Of a stretch of 64,000 nucleotides of DNA, positions 52,832 through 63,777 are shown piece by piece. This DNA comes from a virus: the IMG/VR virus record IMGVR_UViG_3300030041_000010; one strand, written 5' to 3'. Position 1 is the stretch's first letter; each line of letters begins with the position of its first letter. The notes beneath the pieces are model-generated. The model did not search any database and was not told where the DNA came from. It was given only the letters and a program-made list of their open reading frames with translations. Both the position numbers and the translations under genes were made by a program.

Positions 52832-52861
52832 TTGACAAAGTTTTTCGAATACGGGTATTAT
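52832..52861 (+). promoter_or_regulatory. Sigma70-like promoter TTGACA-N18-TATTAT for the tmRNA gene
   Basis: Consensus -35 at 52832-52837; -10 at 52856-52861. Confidence 0.75.
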
Positions 52862-52867
52862 TTGTAC

Positions 52868-53229
52868 ATGGTTGTTTGTCCCGCAAGGGACTGAAGACGT
52901 TCTAAACGACATTCGGACGTGGGTCCGACTCCCACCACATCCACCAAGTTTGGTTTCATTGTTTCACCTTGGGTGTGTCACGGTTTCGACGGGTGTTCAG
53001 GCGGAAGCGGTCTACAACTCGTTTTAGTATACCTGTTCGTTCTCCGGGGAGCCGGAGAGGGTCAGCGATTCCACGCAATACGGTGGATGGCATGGCCTAT
53101 ACGGGAATGCAACAAAAATAAATGCGGAAACTCCTGCATACGCAATGGCTGCTTAATAACCAGCCCTGCCAAGGTTGACAGTTACCTTGTTCCCAGTCCT
53201 GTCTAGGGTGAGGCCGCGAAAGCGGCCTC
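52868..53229 (+). ncRNA. ssrA: Circularly permuted (two-piece) tmRNA; tag (A)AETPAYAMAA**
   Basis: Acceptor piece ends GAC GTGGG TCCGACT CCCAC CACATCC A CCA (to 52946); 24-nt spacer; coding piece starts GGGTGTG TCACGGTTTCGAC (52971) giving G3:U70; tag ORF 53124-53159 follows ATAAAT. Outer ends are approximate. Confidence 0.9.
53210..53229 (+). terminator. GC-rich hairpin probably marking the 3' end of the tmRNA coding piece
   Basis: GAGGCCGC-GAAA-GCGGCCTC; no U-tract. Confidence 0.4.
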
Positions 53230-53245
53230 TGCCGATTAGGAGTCT

Positions 53246-53488
53246 ATGTCTCGCAGAACTCACACAACCAGAACCCGTCTTAATAATTCACACTACCCTT
53301 CATTTCAAGTGCATTGGATTGAGGATGAGGACTATGGTGGCTGGACCGGCGTGGCTCAAATCTGGAGTGATGGCAATACTAAAGATGGCGGTGAGCACAA
53401 GATCTTCGTAAGCTTTTTTTCGATATCGGAGACTGCGTGTCTTTTCTCCACAATGGAGAGAGTCTCCAAGGTAGTGACACCGAGGTGA
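53246..53488 (+). CDS. Hypothetical protein
   Basis: AGGAG RBS. Confidence 0.55.
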   Translation: MSRRTHTTRTRLNNSHYPSFQVHWIEDEDYGGWTGVAQIWSDGNTKDGGEHKIFVSFFSISETACLFSTMERVSKVVTPR

Positions 53489-53715: not shown

Positions 53716-53892
53716 ATGAAAATTGAAATCGAACTTGACTTTAACGACCTCATGTTGTTGGGTGCAAATGGAACCATTCAAAAAGGAGATTCGACGGTGA
53801 CTATCAACCGTCCTGTTCTCCCTGAAATTGAAGGGGGTAAGGTTATTTTCAGACTTGATAACACCGACCCCCGGTCTTCCGAATTCCGCTAG
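53716..53892 (+). CDS. Hypothetical protein
   Basis: AGGAG RBS before ATG 53716. Confidence 0.55.
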   Translation: MKIEIELDFNDLMLLGANGTIQKGDSTVTINRPVLPEIEGGKVIFRLDNTDPRSSEFR

Positions 53893-54533
53893 GCTGCATA
53901 CTGCAACGCTGTCTCAACTATCTCTCGGTTGCACTCTAACCAACCCACGAGTGTGTTGCAGCGGCTGCAAAGCAAGCCCCTCGCACACTCACCACATGAC
54001 CCCTCTCCTGCACAGCATCTATGGTCGTGGTCTAAGCACAACACCCGGCCCTCTTCGGGCGGTGTGTGGCAGATGGCACACCCTCCGTTTTGCTTTTGCA
54101 GTGTGGTTGTGTACCATTCGTACGGAAGGTGGTGCGACCTTTCAAAGTTCTGTTCTCGGCAGCATTGCCTACATGAGCCGCGCTTCCCGGTGTGGAACGC
54201 CGATTGTGGAAGAAATGATTTATGCCTCGCACACCAGCGGTTGCCTTTGTTACTTTCACAATCTTCAGCCGACACTCCGTGTTTTGCCAATTTACTCAGT
54301 CGAAGTTTAAGTTTGTGGTTTTCGGATTTACTTACTAGAGGCCCTCCGCGCCCTCTGACGATGTTGGAAGTATCAAGACCCAACTCTTCTATGGTTTTCC
54401 AGAATGTGCGGTGGTTCCCGGTACCATTGGTTAGTCCAAATTTATGAAGAATTTGACAAACATGAGTGGACTCGGTAATAATCGTTTGTAGTTCAACTGG
54501 AGTTACAGATTTCAAAGTAGCATATTTTTGCAC
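53889..54533 (-). CDS. Endonuclease VII-family (His-Me) homing endonuclease
   Basis: QNGGCAIC..LCLDHDHRCC..RGLLCSRCN; inserted antisense. Confidence 0.85.
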   Translation of the reverse strand: MQKYATLKSVTPVELQTIITESTHVCQILHKFGLTNGTGNHRTFWKTIEELGLDTSNIVRGRGGPLVSKSENHKLKLRLSKLAKHGVSAEDCESNKGNRWCARHKSFLPQSAFHTGKRGSCRQCCREQNFERSHHLPYEWYTTTLQKQNGGCAICHTPPEEGRVLCLDHDHRCCAGEGSCGECARGLLCSRCNTLVGWLECNREIVETALQYAA

Positions 54534-54559
54534 GGTAGCCTCAAGGAGGGGCTAAATGT

Positions 54560-54928
54560 ATGACCTAGCTGAATGACCCCTACATCTATGTATTTGTTAG
54601 ACAAGATTTTCCCAAAGATAATCTTGCCCAACAGATAGTCCAATCCAACCACGCCACTTTCGAGATGGCAAAACGACTCACCGACTACAATGAAACACCT
54701 TCGGTTGTCCTCATCGGTATCCCCGACAAGTCATCCCTTGAAGCCGTAGCCGCTAGGCTCACGCGCTATGGTATCGCATTCGAGGCTTTTTATGAGCCTG
54801 ACTACGACCTTGGCCTCACCGCTATCGCCACATACCCCATCACTAATAAGAAGCAGCGTCGTGCTCTTGGTACGTACAAGCTTTGGTCTCCACAGGAATC
54901 AACTCTCCTGTTACAGGAGGCGGCATAA
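54560..54928 (+). CDS. Pth2-like peptidyl-tRNA hydrolase with in-frame TAG at codon 3
   Basis: AAGGAGGGG RBS then ATG ACC TAG CTG AAT GAC CCC TAC ATC..; YIYVFVRQD..QQIVQSNHA..FYEPD..LTAIA..YKLW. Confidence 0.7.
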
Positions 54929-57016: not shown

Positions 57017-57190
57017 ATGACGTAGGATATGGAAAACAGCAAAATCCTCGCCGAGGCGGTTCTCAAAGCATTCGTACAACACGACAAAGGGAAACACACC
57101 TGTTGCCGCTTTTGTAAGGTGTGGTTGCACTGGGAAGACCATGACAGTGAATGCCCTGTGCTACTCGCTCAAAGCGTCAGCAGGAGCTAA
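57017..57190 (+). CDS. Small zinc-binding protein preceded in frame by an ATG-ACG-TAG minigene
   Basis: AAGGAG RBS then ATG ACG TAG GAT ATG GAA..; CRFC..H..C motif. Confidence 0.5.
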
Positions 57191-57811
57191 ATGGTTGTTC
57201 AGGTAGACCTGATACCAGTCTGTGGATATTTCCCGCTGTGCCTCTTGTAGAGTCATGGTGTGGGTGACACATACCTGATGGTGTAGCCAGTTCTCCACAG
57301 CGTCCTTCGCGTGGGCTCCGGGCACGCCATCAGCCGGATTGTACGGCTGGATGAACAGGTTTTTAATGTCGTCGGCACCACCTAGTTCAAGAGAATCGAT
57401 ATGGTCAACCTCGCAGGATTCAATTCGCTGCTGGCCGGATGCGGTGGTGCGGCTGGTTGGAGCACAGATACCCTCGTGTGGAGCCACCCCATAGGCACGG
57501 TACACTTCCATCTTCATCGCTTCGGTGGTGTGCCTGAACTCTTTGGTGCTGGTGCTGCATACTTCATCCGCAGTGACGCCGGGGCGGAGCATACCGGGAG
57601 AGATGTTAGGATTGGGTAGGAGTACCTGTCCATGATGGTAGAACCTACCCGGACCGGGGCCGACATCGTTTATTGTCAGCCTTTGACGTTTTTCAGTCGG
57701 GGCGGTTTGAAAGTGCATTTTAAGCAGAGGGTGAAAGAGAAACCAAAGGGTTATCAGAGTTAAGGCTGTGGTGATTAACCATAATTTTAATAGAACCCAT
57801 AATCTCTTCAT
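57161..57811 (-). CDS. Membrane-anchored/secreted HNH-like protein
   Basis: N-terminal TM helix; CEVDHIDSLELGGADDIKNLF..KDAVEN. Confidence 0.7.
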   Translation of the reverse strand: MKRLWVLLKLWLITTALTLITLWFLFHPLLKMHFQTAPTEKRQRLTINDVGPGPGRFYHHGQVLLPNPNISPGMLRPGVTADEVCSTSTKEFRHTTEAMKMEVYRAYGVAPHEGICAPTSRTTASGQQRIESCEVDHIDSLELGGADDIKNLFIQPYNPADGVPGAHAKDAVENWLHHQVCVTHTMTLQEAQREISTDWYQVYLNNHLAPADALSE

Positions 57812-58245: not shown

Positions 58246-58322
58246 GCCCCCGTAGCTCAACTGGTTAGAGTGACGGTCTCTAAAACCGGAGGTTGTGGGT
58301 TCGAGTCCCTCCGGGGGCACCA
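58246..58322 (+). tRNA. Amber suppressor tRNA (anticodon CTA), copy 1, Trp-like anticodon arm
   Basis: GCCCCCG TA GCTC..GAGT G ACGGT CTCTAAA ACCGG AGGTT GTGGG TTCGAGT CCCTC CGGGGGC A CCA. Confidence 0.85.
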
Positions 58323-58959: not shown

Positions 58960-59037
58960 GCGCCCGTAGCTCAGTTGGCTAGAGCGGGGGTCTCTAAAGC
59001 CCTGTCAGCGTGGGTTCAAGTCCCACCGGGCGCACCA
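58960..59037 (+). tRNA. Amber suppressor tRNA (anticodon CTA), copy 2
   Basis: GCGCCCG TA GCTC..GAGC G GGGGT CTCTAAA GCCCT GTCAGC GTGGG TTCAAGT CCCAC CGGGCGC A CCA. Confidence 0.85.
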
Positions 59038-59789: not shown

Positions 59790-59876
59790 ATGCGTCTGAC
59801 GAGCCAAACACGAATTACTACCACAACGCAAACCAGCGGTGGCGGTATCGTAGTGTCTGGCACGGAATTCGACTAA
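59790..59876 (+). CDS. thrL-like leader peptide MRLTSQTRITTTTQTSGGGIVVSGTEFD
   Basis: AAGGA RBS 8 nt upstream; 8 Thr in 28 codons; run ATT ACT ACC ACA ACG CAA ACC. Confidence 0.85.
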   Translation: MRLTSQTRITTTTQTSGGGIVVSGTEFD

Positions 59877-59941
59877 AACAAGAGTCAAATCCAACTAGAC
59901 GCAAACGAGCCGCCCAACACCGGGGCGGCTTTAGTGTTTTT
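59803..59941 (+). promoter_or_regulatory. Ribosome-mediated transcription attenuator (1:2, 2:3 antiterminator, 3:4 terminator)
   Basis: 1:2 GCCAAACAC/GTGTCTGGC and TACTACCAC/GTGGCGGTA; 2:3 GGCGGT-TCGT-GTGTCTGG with CTAGACGC-ACGA-GCCGCC; 3:4 AGCCGCCC/GGGCGGCT followed by TTAGTGTTTTT. Confidence 0.8.
59907..59941 (+). terminator. Intrinsic terminator of the attenuator
   Basis: 8-bp GC-rich stem, 7-nt loop, interrupted U-tract. Confidence 0.7.
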
Positions 59942-59952
59942 GGGGGTAAATC

Positions 59953-60342: not shown

Positions 60343-60599
60343 GTATCGAAGACATTATCAGTCAACTCCGGGCTGAAAGAAAAGATGTACGCGGAGATGG
60401 ATTTGGATACGCGGGGTCGTTAATCTCCGCGTACAAGAAAGCAATCACGGCTCTCGAAGAGTTGCAGGAGAAGTTGAAAGAGACTCCTCCACCAGCAGAG
60501 GTTGAGAGTTTGAAAGCGGCTAACCCTGATTGCTTTGGATTCGGCAGTGACAACACCGCCGAGTGTAAATGCCGCAAAGTTTTTGCGCCTTTCGCCTAG
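60339..60599 (+). CDS. Hypothetical protein
   Basis: GTGA coupling; 3' end overlaps a tRNA gene. Confidence 0.5.
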   Translation: MSIEDIISQLRAERKDVRGDGFGYAGSLISAYKKAITALEELQEKLKETPPPAEVESLKAANPDCFGFGSDNTAECKCRKVFAPFA

Positions 60600-60659
60600 C
60601 GGCTAGGGCCTCCGACCGATTATCGGATGACCAGAGTTCGAGTCTCTGAGGGCGCACCA
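60585..60659 (+). tRNA. Atypical tRNA-Ile(GAT) (loop CCGATTA: C33, U37)
   Basis: GCGCCTT..TCCGA CCGATTA TCGGA TGAC CAGAG TTCGAGT CTCTG AGGGCGC A CCA. Confidence 0.65.
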
Positions 60660-60664
60660 AGTTT

Positions 60665-60819
60665 GGGCTTGCTGTGGTCAGGCACGTAGGGAGAAAACCG
60701 GCACTCAGAGTCGGCAAGGTACGCGACCTTGCTTTATGTCTGAGATGGGAAACCGAAAGGTATTGCCCTTCAGGAAGACCTCATGCGTAGAGGCGGTTCA
60801 ACTCCGCCCAAGTCCATCA
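60665..60819 (+). ncRNA. ~155-nt tmRNA-TLD-like RNA with G3:U70 acceptor stem and no anticodon arm
   Basis: GGGCTTG/CAAGTCC A TCA; T arm GGCGG TTCAACT CCGCC; unpaired D-like loop CTGTGGTCAGGC; helix ACGTA/TGCGT; internal hairpins. Confidence 0.65.
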
Positions 60820-60828
60820 AGTGGGTAA

Positions 60829-60903
60829 GCCCGTATGGCTCAGTGGTAGCGCAGTCGCTTGATAAGCGAAAGGTCGTTGGTTCGATCCCAACTACGGGCA
60901 CCA
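60829..60903 (+). tRNA. tRNA-Ile(GAT)
   Basis: GCCCGTA..GTCGC TTGATAA GCGAA..GTTGG TTCGATC CCAAC TACGGGC A CCA. Confidence 0.9.
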
Positions 60904-61029
60904 AGTAAAATATGCGGCATGTCGTGAGTTTGTAGCTGGTAAGAATGCCGACATGTCGTGGGCTCAGAAGAAAGAGCCGAAGAAAAAGAAACACGCTTTG
61001 CCAAGTGGCGAGGCAACACAGGGTTGATT

Positions 61030-61129
61030 TTCCGTATGACTGAGGGTGGCGTAAACCACACTGTTGTCAGAACTCAAAATGGTTTTTACGGATCATGCGA
61101 GTTCGTAGGTTCGACTCCGACTACGGAAC
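61030..61129 (+). ncRNA. Atypical ~100-nt tRNA-like RNA
   Basis: TTCCGTA/TACGGAA acceptor; GTAGG TTCGACT CCGAC T arm; two extended arms (TGAC..GTCA; GAACTC..GAGTTC); no encoded CCA. Confidence 0.5.
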
Positions 61130-61140
61130 GAATTTGAAAT

Positions 61141-61223
61141 GCCACGGTGGCACAGCGGCGACTGCAACGGTTCCGTAAACCGTCACACCAACATCGGGGG
61201 TTCGAGTCCCTCCCGTGGCCCCA
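61141..61223 (+). tRNA. tRNA-Thr(CGT), C33 and 12-nt variable region
   Basis: GCCACGG..ACGGT TCCGTAA ACCGT..GGGGG TTCGAGT CCCTC CCGTGGC C CCA. Confidence 0.8.
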
Positions 61224-61227
61224 AGTT

Positions 61228-61530
61228 ATGAAGATGTACATCCTAATTCGCGAGGTGGTACCTGTGGGCAAGGCGGTACTAATCTCTGCACATGCCTCGC
61301 TGGCGTGCTACCTGAAGTTTAAGGAACGGCCTGAGATGCAGACATGGGTGAGTAGTCAATTCTTTAAGGTTGTATGTACTGTAACTGACGCAGAATTTGA
61401 ACGGGCAAAGACCGAGGCTGACAACGTGGTATTGACGGAATCCACGTTGGAAAATGTAGAGGTTGCTGTAGCTTTCTGTCCTCGGGAAGAATATCCGAAG
61501 ATGTTTAAGTTTTTGCGGTTGTGGAAATAG
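61228..61530 (+). CDS. Peptidyl-tRNA hydrolase, Pth2 family
   Basis: MKMYILIRE..GKAV..AHASL..W..F.KVVC.V..VAVAFCPR..F..LRLW. Confidence 0.8.
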   Translation: MKMYILIREVVPVGKAVLISAHASLACYLKFKERPEMQTWVSSQFFKVVCTVTDAEFERAKTEADNVVLTESTLENVEVAVAFCPREEYPKMFKFLRLWK

Positions 61531-61601
61531 GGGTGATGGCGACGGTAGTCTAGCTGCCTTTGAAGCAGTGAATGAGGGTTCGACTCCCTCCGCCCCTGCC
61601 A
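61529..61601 (+). tRNA. tRNA-Gln(TTG)
   Basis: AGGGGTG..GCTGC CTTTGAA GCAGT..GAGGG TTCGACT CCCTC CGCCCCT G CCA. Confidence 0.8.
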
Positions 61602-61614
61602 AGTTTAGGTTTAT

Positions 61615-61691
61615 GCCAACGTAGCTCAGATGGTCAGAGCGGCAGTTTTGTAAACTGCGGGTCGGGGGTTCGATGCCCTCCGTTGGCTCCA
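61615..61691 (+). tRNA. tRNA-Thr(TGT)
   Basis: GCCAACG..GCAGT TTTGTAA ACTGC..CGTTGGC T CCA. Confidence 0.9.
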
Positions 61692-61704
61692 GTTTAGTTG
61701 TTTT

Positions 61705-61780
61705 GCAGATGTAGCATAGCGGTCAATGCGCCTCCCTTGTAACGAGGACGCCGTCAGTTCGAATCTGACCATCTGCTCCA
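61705..61780 (+). tRNA. tRNA-Thr(TGT), second divergent copy
   Basis: GCAGATG..CCTCC CTTGTAA CGAGG..GTCAG TTCGAAT CTGAC CATCTGC T CCA. Confidence 0.85.
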
Positions 61781-61794
61781 GTTTGAGGTACGAT

Positions 61795-61932
61795 ATGAGA
61801 GTTATCAGCATCGCGTTGTACCGATTTGCTCAGGCGCTGTCTTACGTTCTACCTGAGTCGATATGGGAACCAGTGACCTATCCAATCGACCGATTGCGTT
61901 GGTGGTTCGAAAAACATGCACCTGTCGTCTAG
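61795..61932 (+). CDS. Small hypothetical protein
   Basis: GAGGT RBS; 3' end overlaps a tRNA. Confidence 0.4.
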   Translation: MRVISIALYRFAQALSYVLPESIWEPVTYPIDRLRWWFEKHAPVV

Positions 61933-61993
61933 TGGCTCAGGACTCCTCCTTGGTATGGAGGGTACAGGGGTTCAAATCCCCTCGGGTGCTCCA
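61918..61993 (+). tRNA. tRNA-Thr(GGT) with Glu/Asp-like D arm
   Basis: GCACCTG TC GTCTAGTGGCTCAGGAC T CCTCC TTGGTAT GGAGG..AGGGG TTCAAAT CCCCT CGGGTGC T CCA. Confidence 0.85.
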
Positions 61994-62014
61994 ATTTTAT
62001 GGTATTGTTCTTCT

Positions 62015-62233
62015 ATGAGTACATTGACGTGGGAAGAACGAAACCAGCGGATTAAAAAGGAACAGCTTACTGAAGAAGAGTTGGGGACTTTAGTAGGCTG
62101 TGCTGTAACCGGAGTGCGGAGATTCTGGGGTCATGGAGCAGAGTATGAAATCCGCTTCGATGATGGTCGAACGCTCTACATTACCAAGAGCGACTACACC
62201 AACGATGTAGTTTGCATGTTCAAAGAGTTTTAA
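62015..62233 (+). CDS. Hypothetical protein
   Basis: 72-aa ORF; possibly leaderless behind a TATTGT -10. Confidence 0.55.
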   Translation: MSTLTWEERNQRIKKEQLTEEELGTLVGCAVTGVRRFWGHGAEYEIRFDDGRTLYITKSDYTNDVVCMFKEF

Positions 62234-62296
62234 GCTACGAGTCGTGGCTCCAGTTTCCGTATTAGTGAGTATTAGTGAGTACGAGGTACTGACTAA

Positions 62297-62488
62297 ATGG
62301 GTAAGAAAGTTGAAAAGGGGTTGTGTTGGGAGTTGGATGATTCGGAGTGTGATATCAACGCCCCCTCACCGCATTTCACGGATGACAGTAGCGAACGTGA
62401 GAACGACTATCTGTACGGGACGTTTCCCGTGCTGATTCCTAAGAGGCCACCTTCAAGGTTGCAACCTCCGAAGGAACCAAAAGAGTAA
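62297..62488 (+). CDS. Hypothetical protein
   Basis: GAGG RBS; 63 aa. Confidence 0.45.
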   Translation: MGKKVEKGLCWELDDSECDINAPSPHFTDDSSERENDYLYGTFPVLIPKRPPSRLQPPKEPKE

Positions 62489-62877
62489 ATCGCGCAATAT
62501 AAGTGGCGCGATTCAGGTTTTAATTGCGTGATTCGGAATCGCGCCATAACGCCGCTTGTGGCAAGCAAGCCACTTGGGTTCGTCACACGCAGTTTGCCGG
62601 TACTCATCCTTTCTGCACTGAGTGTGCAAAGAAGGAAGATGATTTTGGTGAAGAGTCCAGCTATGTGGTTTGGGAGGAGCTTTTACATGAAGTTGCTCAG
62701 TAGTTGGTTCTTCTTCGTGCCTCCATTCACGATCCTGCCTCGGTGGAAGTTGGCAGTTATGCGTCAGTGGCTGTGGAGGTATCAGAGGTATACACAGCCG
62801 GGAGTTCGTGGATGTCCTATGAATGGGGATGCTTTCGGTTGTATCGGATTTTGGATGAGGAAGCTTGTCAATTTTAG

Positions 62878-62953
62878 GCCGGAGTAGCTCAGTTGTTAGA
62901 GCGCCGTCTTGGTAAGACGGAGGTCACGGGTTAGAACCCCGTCTCTGGCTCCA
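62878..62953 (+). tRNA. tRNA-Thr(GGT), second copy, non-canonical D and T loops
   Basis: GCCGGAG..CCGTC TTGGTAA GACGG..ACGGG TTAGAAC CCCGT CTCTGGC T CCA. Confidence 0.8.
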
Positions 62954-63180
62954 AATCTTGAAAGGGGATTCCATTGAAGCCTCCTCTTGGTTCAATTCTG
63001 AACTAAAGCCATCAATATCACGGCTTACTGTATCCAAATCAGACCCGCTAATTAAAGCAGTATACCAACGGATATGTCTGTACATTAGTTCGGGGTTTAA
63101 GAGTGTCCGATGGACGCGCAGTTGTTGAAAAATAACTGGGCTTTGGTGAAAGCACGATTTGTAGCTGAAGGGTTTTGTTA

Positions 63181-63777
63181 ATGGAACAGTATCCGAGTAT
63201 CGAAGGCAGTTCAAAGGCCCCCCTTGGTGAGGCGGGTCTTGCCTTCTACAAGTATGACGGCTCGAACCTCAGGTGGGAGTGGAACCCCAAGAAGGGGTGG
63301 TTCAAGTTTGGCACCCGCACCCAACTGTTCGATAAGTCGGAGCCGTTATTTGGTCAGGCCATTCCCCTTTTTATGCAGATGGGCGATGAGATTGTCCATC
63401 GTGTGAAAAGTGTTGAACGACAACCGCAACGCATTACAGCTTACACGGAATTCTTCGGCGAGAGCAGTTTCGCCGGGAGCCATATTCTGGAAGAGCCGAA
63501 GCAACTCAAGTTGTTCGATGTGTACTTGTTCAAGAAGGGGTTAATGAAGCCCCGACAGTTTGTGAAGACCTTTGGTGGTTTGCCTTATGTAGCGGAAGTG
63601 GTTTACGATGGCAACATCAACCAATCATTTGTTCAGGGGGTCCGGGCTGGAGAGTATCCAGTTTGGGAGGGGGTCGTCTGCAAGGGCGACAACTTCATGT
63701 TCAAGGTGAAGACCGATGCCTACTTGAGGAAGCTGCGGCAGGTATACCCGCAGCGATGGAATCAGTTTTGGGAGTGA
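63181..63777 (+). CDS. RNA ligase (Rnl2-like adenylation domain)
   Basis: Nucleotidyltransferase motifs KYDGSN, EFFG, LFDV, EGVV, FKVK. Confidence 0.8.
   Translation: MEQYPSIEGSSKAPLGEAGLAFYKYDGSNLRWEWNPKKGWFKFGTRTQLFDKSEPLFGQAIPLFMQMGDEIVHRVKSVERQPQRITAYTEFFGESSFAGSHILEEPKQLKLFDVYLFKKGLMKPRQFVKTFGGLPYVAEVVYDGNINQSFVQGVRAGEYPVWEGVVCKGDNFMFKVKTDAYLRKLRQVYPQRWNQFWE

Follow-up and report, generated by a model that had tools for sequence, protein, structure and literature searches.

A near-start amber codon in phage Pth2-like genes as a probable read-through gate accompanied by suppressor tRNAs

A probable read-through gate on a phage gene

The window, a stretch of 64,000 nucleotides from IMG/VR virus record IMGVR_UViG_3300030041_000010, is part of a large tailed phage, in which baseplate J is present. 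It contains a gene for a Pth2-fold protein with UAG as its third codon. Judged on sequence and its conservation, this UAG is very probably a programmed read-through gate. The explanation favoured as a whole, a UAG gate and read-through sensor that switches on predicted tRNA-recycling proteins, is given a probability of about 0.55. Synthesis of the full-length protein would require the CUA tRNA encoded by the same element to win over release factor 1 at the stop. The features of the gate locus are:

54536..54554, + strand: ribosome-binding site (RBS) AAGGAGGGG (54543-54551), predicted to lie partly within a 7-bp hairpin (sequence, fold)
54560..54568, + strand: gate ATG-ACC-TAG, with the TAG at 54566-54568 (sequence; conserved in homologues)
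54560..54928, + strand: amber-gated Pth2-fold ORF, 122 codons on read-through, ending in TAA (table 15 read-through, structure match)

The TAG is followed by CTG AAT GAC CCC TAC ATC TAT and the frame is open to the TAA at 54926-54928. As the original prediction had it, the next in-frame ATG (54665) is downstream of the YIYVFVRQD and QSNHA motifs. A start there would lose the predicted first strand, most of the first helix, and the near-invariant RxD and QxxH residues. Another ATG, out of frame at 54556 and opening six codons, is nearer to the RBS than the gate ATG and is missing in the close relative L036, where the RBS hairpin sequence is identical. The record protein for the gene is an 87-aa fragment (P0001), all that gene callers give, and this fragment is found on 14 contigs, the longest of 310 kb.

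The TAG is genuine, being unchanged in the contigs of all four other peat runs that cover the site, which are possibly from one campaign. The four differences downstream of it in these contigs are all synonymous. A single metatranscriptome contig (54401-54838) also has the TAG; such contigs tell neither level nor strand, and no expression level is claimed from RNA runs X23 and X24, which were used in small share and as contigs only. A start 1 to 4 codons ahead of an in-frame TAG precedes just 8 of 463 control long ORFs, and the gate is therefore not a chance occurrence.

Window-wide recoding of TAG (code 15) was rejected, since TAG is used as an ordinary stop, ending 20 of the 54 greedily chosen window ORFs, and coding coverage with table 15 is no higher (0.917 vs 0.907 in the window). 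The code 15 feature of a CUA tRNA is present in the window, though table 15 gives no gain.

Conservation of the gate

A sense codon in the homologues had been named as an objection to the gate. This objection fails: of 145 distinct homologues scored, a sample seeded from gated lineages that gives no rate for the wider family, 133 have TAG at the gate, 2 have TGA, and 10 are ungated. Rescoring by eye gives 132, 2, and 11, with L212 gated behind a 17-codon leader and L273 and L277 doubtful; L213 and L214 are not among the 145. The homologues were collected by scanning viral, metagenome, and genome sets with alignment seeds, and by following the HD partner gene described below to further loci. 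The wider family has 2,087 clusters at E<=0.001, many with ordinary starts. All of the initial 11 viral loci (7 distinct) have an in-frame TAG ahead of the motif, and the most divergent gated members have 23% identity to the window protein.

The stop is codon 3 in 58 homologues and codon 4 or 5 in 52, with an overall range of codons 2 to 14. The residue preceding it varies across the 135 gates (Leu in 40, Thr in 21, His in 20, Ser in 11, and others). Because of this variation and the 2 to 14 codon leader, the suggestion that an unsuppressed Met-Thr minigene sequesters tRNA-Thr is unsupported for this gene; a role for Thr may hold for the second gated gene at 57017 only. A minigene of the lambda bar type was likewise rejected, as the second codon is variable and the downstream variants are synonymous only.

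In 124 of the 135 gated homologues there is no ATG between the stop and the motif, and the codon following the stop is mostly GTT, GTC, or ATC. It is CTG in just 2 of 69, and initiation at CTG 54569 is not supported; from these sequences, the codon after the stop is not a conserved start. The prediction of a conserved amber gate whose full-length product needs read-through is supported. A purine is 3' of the stop in 65 of 69 gates, compared to 90 of 204 background TAG ends, these being related sequences and not independent. No TAA gate was called among the 135.

Ten GenBank phage loci were opened from 33 matches. Nine are gated (GAP32, ME3, RsoM2USA, Arash, fHe-Yen9-04, Kaldavass, LR756511, XacN1, and CM1), including those of the cultured phages GAP32, ME3, Arash, RsoM2USA, and XacN1, and RaK2 is ungated. 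The idea that the TAG is an RBS component fits RaK2 alone and was rejected. XacN1 has ATG-AAG-TAG in frame upstream of ORF364, an HD-Pth2 fusion; an alternative start ATG is present five codons after this gate, and there is none in CM1. In both fusions (XacN1, CM1) the gate has moved to the fusion front, which ties it to the start rather than to the fold.

The gate has been lost in L018/L084, though the L020 record has a CUA tRNA 93 kb away. In L033 and L222 the gene has no gate despite an adjoining CUA tRNA, but a partner gene is gated there. Conserved TAG read-through candidates in a genome-wide comparison of GAP32 with fHe-Yen9-04 number three, all of them module genes. In the window, a mid-alignment comparison found no other convincing conserved internal TAG, with off-frame and antisense shadows among its results; this comparison is blind to gates near starts and missed the one at 57017, which was later found by an RBS-ATG-TAG scan.

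Suppressor tRNAs

The two CUA tRNAs predicted downstream of the gene are present:

58246-58322, + strand: tRNA with CUA anticodon (G1-C72, A73, encoded CCA)
58960-59037, + strand: second tRNA with CUA anticodon (G1-C72, A73, encoded CCA)

Both match the canonical tRNA model, the 'Pyl' label from ARAGORN being set by the anticodon. Co-occurrence of gated Pth2-like genes with suppressor tRNAs, proposed as a check, is seen in 93 of the 133 TAG-gated loci, which have a CUA tRNA within the available flank. None was seen in the flanks of the other 40, many of which are short or 6-kb. For six of these (L192, L029, RsoM2USA, XacN1, CM1, and LR756511), a CUA tRNA came to light later with a less strict threshold, on inspection by eye, or in another part of the genome. 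Whole-genome searches for CUA tRNAs used Rfam positions and ARAGORN; a loose IUPAC pattern was no better than control. The 89%-complete record of L010 has a TAG gate with no CUA tRNA found, and its ORF has lost its own stop and runs into a tRNA array. In the ungated RaK2 there is no CUA among the 8 of 9 tRNA matches inspected.

The stop and the anticodon change together. The TGA-gated genes, L024 and L290, each adjoin a UCA tRNA in place of a CUA tRNA, and they are on separate branches of a FastTree tree with moderate supports. The L024 record is complete at 143 kb, and UCA is the only suppressor among its 39 ARAGORN calls, with no CUA tRNA. TGA is also found in L221 (HD gene) and L098 (leader and an internal codon), with no tRNA in their short flanks. 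In L241 a UCA call was judged by eye to be probably spurious. A-to-I editing of the UAG was rejected: it shows no sign in the single RNA contig and would leave the UGA/UCA cases unexplained.

The suppressor tRNA bodies vary widely and differ in identity bases, with some phages having two or three different bodies. The discriminator base over 100 tRNAs is A in 51, G in 35, U in 12, and C in 2. In E. coli, amber suppressors tend to be charged with Lys if the discriminator is A73 and with Gln if it is G73. Given the diversity of identity bases among the tRNA bodies, and with the stop inside the variable N-terminal leader, the inserted residue is probably irrelevant.

Several unusual tRNA arrangements were observed. 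In phage Arash (L110:4310-4384) a tRNA annotated as tRNA-Phe has a CUA anticodon. At L026:10446, L029:10863, and L068:2680 the CUA anticodon arm is accompanied by a duplicated arm with a UUA loop, which could refold into an ochre reader. An 8-base, quadruplet-like loop around CUAG is found next to a CUA tRNA at L005:12305 and L051:7707. Pth2-like ORFs continue into the adjoining tRNA gene in P0022, P0025, P0027, L010, and L024, and the database proteins end in translated tRNA.

The Pth2-fold protein

The first ten Foldseek matches of the predicted structure are all Pth2 structures (best E 3.6e-4, TM 0.43-0.53, from a model of modest confidence, pLDDT 67). The match to Pfam PTH2 (PF01981) is below the gathering score (13.6 bits vs 23, E 0.079), that of the XacN1 fusion scores 25.3, and there is no NCBIfam match for the Pth2-like protein. 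The near-invariant residues of the family are R, D, Q, H, and E. We take Lys, Asp, and Thr to be the catalytic residues of Pth2, and the Lys position aligns to Gln, which is present in 88% of alignment rows. The modelled Pth2 fold is supported, and with Gln in place of the lysine the protein is a putative hydrolase only.

Partner genes and neighbourhood

Around the gate the window contains:

52854..53247, + strand: permuted tmRNA (ribosome rescue context)
53889-54533 and 57161-57811, - strand: endonuclease VII-like and HNH genes, inserted in the cluster
57017..57190, + strand: second amber-gated gene, ATG-ACG-TAG, about 56 aa, CxxC...HDSECP, predicted zinc-binding (RBS-ATG-TAG scan)
59790-59950, + strand: thrL-like leader, Thr/Ile-rich, 28 aa, with a terminator-like hairpin
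61228..61530, + strand: second Pth2-family gene, ungated (Pfam PTH2 E 4.8e-6, above cutoff)
63175..63777, + strand: RNA ligase-like gene (tRNA repair context; PHROG 548, E 1.6e-7)

The M-T-TAG start of the 57017 gene is kept in all 10 relatives with a clear match, five of which have no Met right after it. Its protein has no Pfam family at cutoff, and a viral scan with that protein alone found none.

The original prediction had named a possible link of the gate to a Thr attenuator. For the attenuator itself there is support: of 8 relatives, 7 retain the thrL-like leader at 59790, which precedes a DUF6915 gene and an Ile/Thr/Gln tRNA cluster and is likely to be a phage amino-acid attenuator controlling tRNA genes. 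It is covered by an RNA contig (59566-59845, depth 157) in one metatranscriptome. The Thr-specific minigene at 54560 is not supported. Thr sensing is present in the window lineage through the thrL-like leader and the fixed Thr at 57017. The tRNA set at 60585-62953 is skewed, with five Thr, two Ile, and one Gln, and the relatives have a similar set.

Outside the window, a second partner encodes an HD protein, for which structure prediction gives a match to the HD domain of CCA-adding enzymes. This gene is gated in 48 of 64 distinct loci compared to 8 of 463 control ORFs, a contrast that is somewhat overstated as the leader was allowed up to 4 codons in the control and 15 in the test. Among the 'ungated' HD genes, several carry a TAG further inside, belong to a fusion with a gate at its front, or directly adjoin a gated Pth2-like gene. 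The last is the case in ME3, Arash, and L022, where the HD gene abuts the end of the gated gene; in the GAP32 clade the HD gene has a TAG at codon 47. The HD gene and a further partner, gene B, are absent from the window, and each was not found in five relatives of its lineage. From these comparisons the outputs therefore vary between elements, and the tRNA and the Pth2-like gene are the core.

The bacterial cassette and the gene B leader

Divergent alignment found 23 bacterial loci, where a narrower pattern scan gave none. Of these, 21 have a cassette of about 1.1 kb made up of a CUA tRNA, gene B, and the gated Pth2-like gene; the other two have neither gate nor tRNA. The hosts are 19 Chloroflexota, one Vulcanimicrobiota, and one Abditibacteriaceae. 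The neighbours of the cassette differ among the seven genomes listed. TAG is a normal stop in the cassette loci, ending 34 of 84 long ORFs, shadows included.

Within the same cassette (L192-L212), gene B is preceded by a leader made up of an RBS, a start, one codon, and TAG, then about eight codons, R(D/A/S/G)PP, and a sequence predicted to pair with the B RBS. This combination of Met-x-TAG...RxPP and an anti-RBS hairpin is found in 21 of the 23 gene B loci, judged on sequence and on predicted folds without shuffle control, and in these the stall motif is placed where it would open the predicted hairpin. In PMC12992588, RAPP/RGPP, RDPP, and RSPP are described as motifs that cause or permit arrest. 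Two ambers are present in the leaders of L208, L210, and L212, and a similar leader is found in GAP32, fHe-Yen9-04, and several viral contigs. Of the 21 bacterial Pth2-like ORFs, 16 also end in an R[GADPS]PP motif.

Gene B has no match in Pfam at cutoff, NCBIfam, PADLOC, or the Atlas, and has two weak viral matches, one of them an fHe-Yen9-04 protein. Its model is all-alpha and confident (pLDDT 84) with no PDB match at E<=0.001, and it may have a more distant fold relative. PADLOC (2023 library) assigned no families to four proteins, the Pth2-like, HD, and B proteins among them. For a toxin-antitoxin or known defence system, no match to known components was found in that library.

Proposed function and alternatives

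For the favoured explanation, a host synthetase would in all likelihood charge the tRNA, which would then decode the stop. The 3' ends of tRNAs would probably be the substrate of the gated proteins: the aminoacyl or peptidyl ester for the Pth2-fold protein, and terminal phosphates for the HD protein. A third step is slightly less probable than even odds: read-through would be low at rest and rise on trapping or shortage of RF1, or on destruction of cognate tRNAs, which would free their synthetase to charge the suppressor. In that case the module would supply rescue proteins on demand, like ArfA made under tmRNA overload.

That the purpose of the module is to sense such damage and turn on tRNA recycling is an interpretation of similar, somewhat doubtful standing. 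It is preferred because the identifiable outputs and neighbours (tmRNA, RNA ligase, second Pth2) have rescue and repair functions, because several tRNA bodies coexist, and because the stall motifs tie expression to the state of the ribosome. 'tRNA recycling' covers two of the four outputs, gene B and the 57017 protein being without known fold or family.

Negative feedback, or addiction, behind the same gate is rather unlikely overall, yet fits the compact bacterial unit nearly as well as a sensor does. The products would deacylate, bind, or inactivate the suppressor tRNA and so hold read-through at a set level; their loss, for example through phage translation shut-off, would unleash global UAG read-through. 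All of the protein genes in the bacterial cassette depend on read-through, the tRNA heads the same unit, the cassette is found among differing neighbours, and with TAG a normal stop around it an active suppressor would be costly. However, set-level read-through has no visible benefit, the GAP32/fHe-Yen9-04 candidates are only the module genes, the Pth2-like, HD, and B proteins have no PADLOC match, and two or three suppressor bodies per phage fit multiple sensors better than one toxin.

It is distinctly unlikely that the stop is a throttle or timer, with a constitutively active suppressor and a stop that lowers or delays the synthesis of enzymes harmful to translation in excess. A strong suppressor would leave the gate open, so that it would act as a throttle. 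No special trigger is needed for this, some lineages have no gate, and a timing role for suppressor tRNAs has been proposed in recoded phages (bioRxiv 10.1101/2021.08.26.457843). Yet a weak RBS would be cheaper than maintaining a suppressor tRNA, a timer makes little sense with the tRNA and genes adjoining in a bacterial chromosome, and the stall-motif attenuator is left unexplained.

Function without read-through, in which the minigene sequesters tRNA or supports re-initiation and the protein comes from a non-canonical start, is very improbable. A Met is present between the stop and the motif in 11 of the 133 TAG calls, minigenes cause peptidyl-tRNA drop-off (PMC8012679), and the database protein P0029 has Lys at the aligned place, judged on protein sequence alone. 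Against this, a conserved start after the stop is missing, stop and anticodon switch together twice with no TAA gate among the 135, and the TAG of the GAP32-clade HD gene is as far in as codon 47. A pseudogene, sequencing error, or ordinary TAG recoding, as the fragment given by gene callers might suggest, can be dismissed on the conservation and independent runs, the synonymous-only variants, and the lack of gain with table 15.

If the gate reading is true, it would explain why stop-reading phage tRNAs exist. It gives suppressor tRNAs in standard-code phages a concrete target, left open in PMC5852040, and a regulatory logic in which a private tRNA gates its own regulon and which extends over jumbo phages infecting several groups of hosts and over Chloroflexota chromosomes. 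GenBank records give the gated genes in truncated or split form or miss them. More tentatively, the module could be a mobile regulon, found in phages and bacteria, of 'sentinel tRNA' type: private suppressors with different identity bases would each report on a synthetase, the tRNA pool, or the release factor. Host defence or antibiotic damage would then lead to UAG (or UGA) read-through and so to the Pth2-fold, HD end-healing, and small zinc proteins, and to B via an amber-plus-stall attenuator. Such a natural code-expansion switch would be a plausible source of recoding suppressors, and it may be the missing step by which phages gain suppressors before recoding.

Comparison with known systems

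In the literature searched, mainly open-access titles and abstracts, no description of this gate was found, and a gate with a private suppressor tRNA is not a member of any of the systems compared. Iyer et al. (PMC7824862) report Pth2 (PF01981) from jumbo phages, in a main text without the word 'suppressor'. The window protein shares with Pth2 the fold, the RxD and QxxH motifs, and the tRNA-repair context, and differs in its score below the Pfam cutoff, the Gln for Lys, a shortened DAGxT loop (EPD), and the amber gate.

The pyrrolysine and selenocysteine systems use a dedicated tRNA to decode an in-frame stop in selected genes. Unlike these, the gate has many canonical tRNA bodies, a stop outside the folded domain at a variable distance, and no special residue implied. 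The pyrrolysine system itself was rejected on the canonical tRNA model match, the variable discriminator, and a stop at codon 2-14 that is not fixed.

The prfB gene (RF2) is autoregulated by an in-gene termination signal and a frameshift. The gate is similar to this and to ArfA, which is made from non-stop mRNA (PMC8012679), in that a termination or rescue signal within the gene sets the synthesis of a translation-quality factor. It is unlike them in that a dedicated tRNA decodes the signal, rather than a frameshift or truncated mRNA being used, and the product is not a release factor.

The ermC leader is an arrest-peptide attenuator. So are SecM and the ApdA/ApdP RAPP family (PMC12992588). 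The gene B leader, found in related loci only, resembles these in having RxPP directly before an RBS-hiding hairpin, but it would need amber read-through first, with suppression rather than secretion force or a drug as its input.

Suppressor tRNAs have been described in stop-codon-recoded phages (code 15 crAss-like, Lak; Borges et al., 10.1101/2021.08.26.457843). The purpose of a phage suppressor was left open in the text of PMC8386662, and the XacN1 authors report that they could not identify genes targeted by its CUA tRNAs (PMC5852040). For these same tRNAs, the target offered here is ORF364. Shared with recoded phages are a host that uses the standard code and a phage tRNA that reads a stop and is a proposed gate on expression. 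Unlike recoded phages, where many stops are in late genes, the code is unchanged here and one near-start stop is found in a few dedicated genes, the residue is probably irrelevant, and the unit is also present in bacterial chromosomes.
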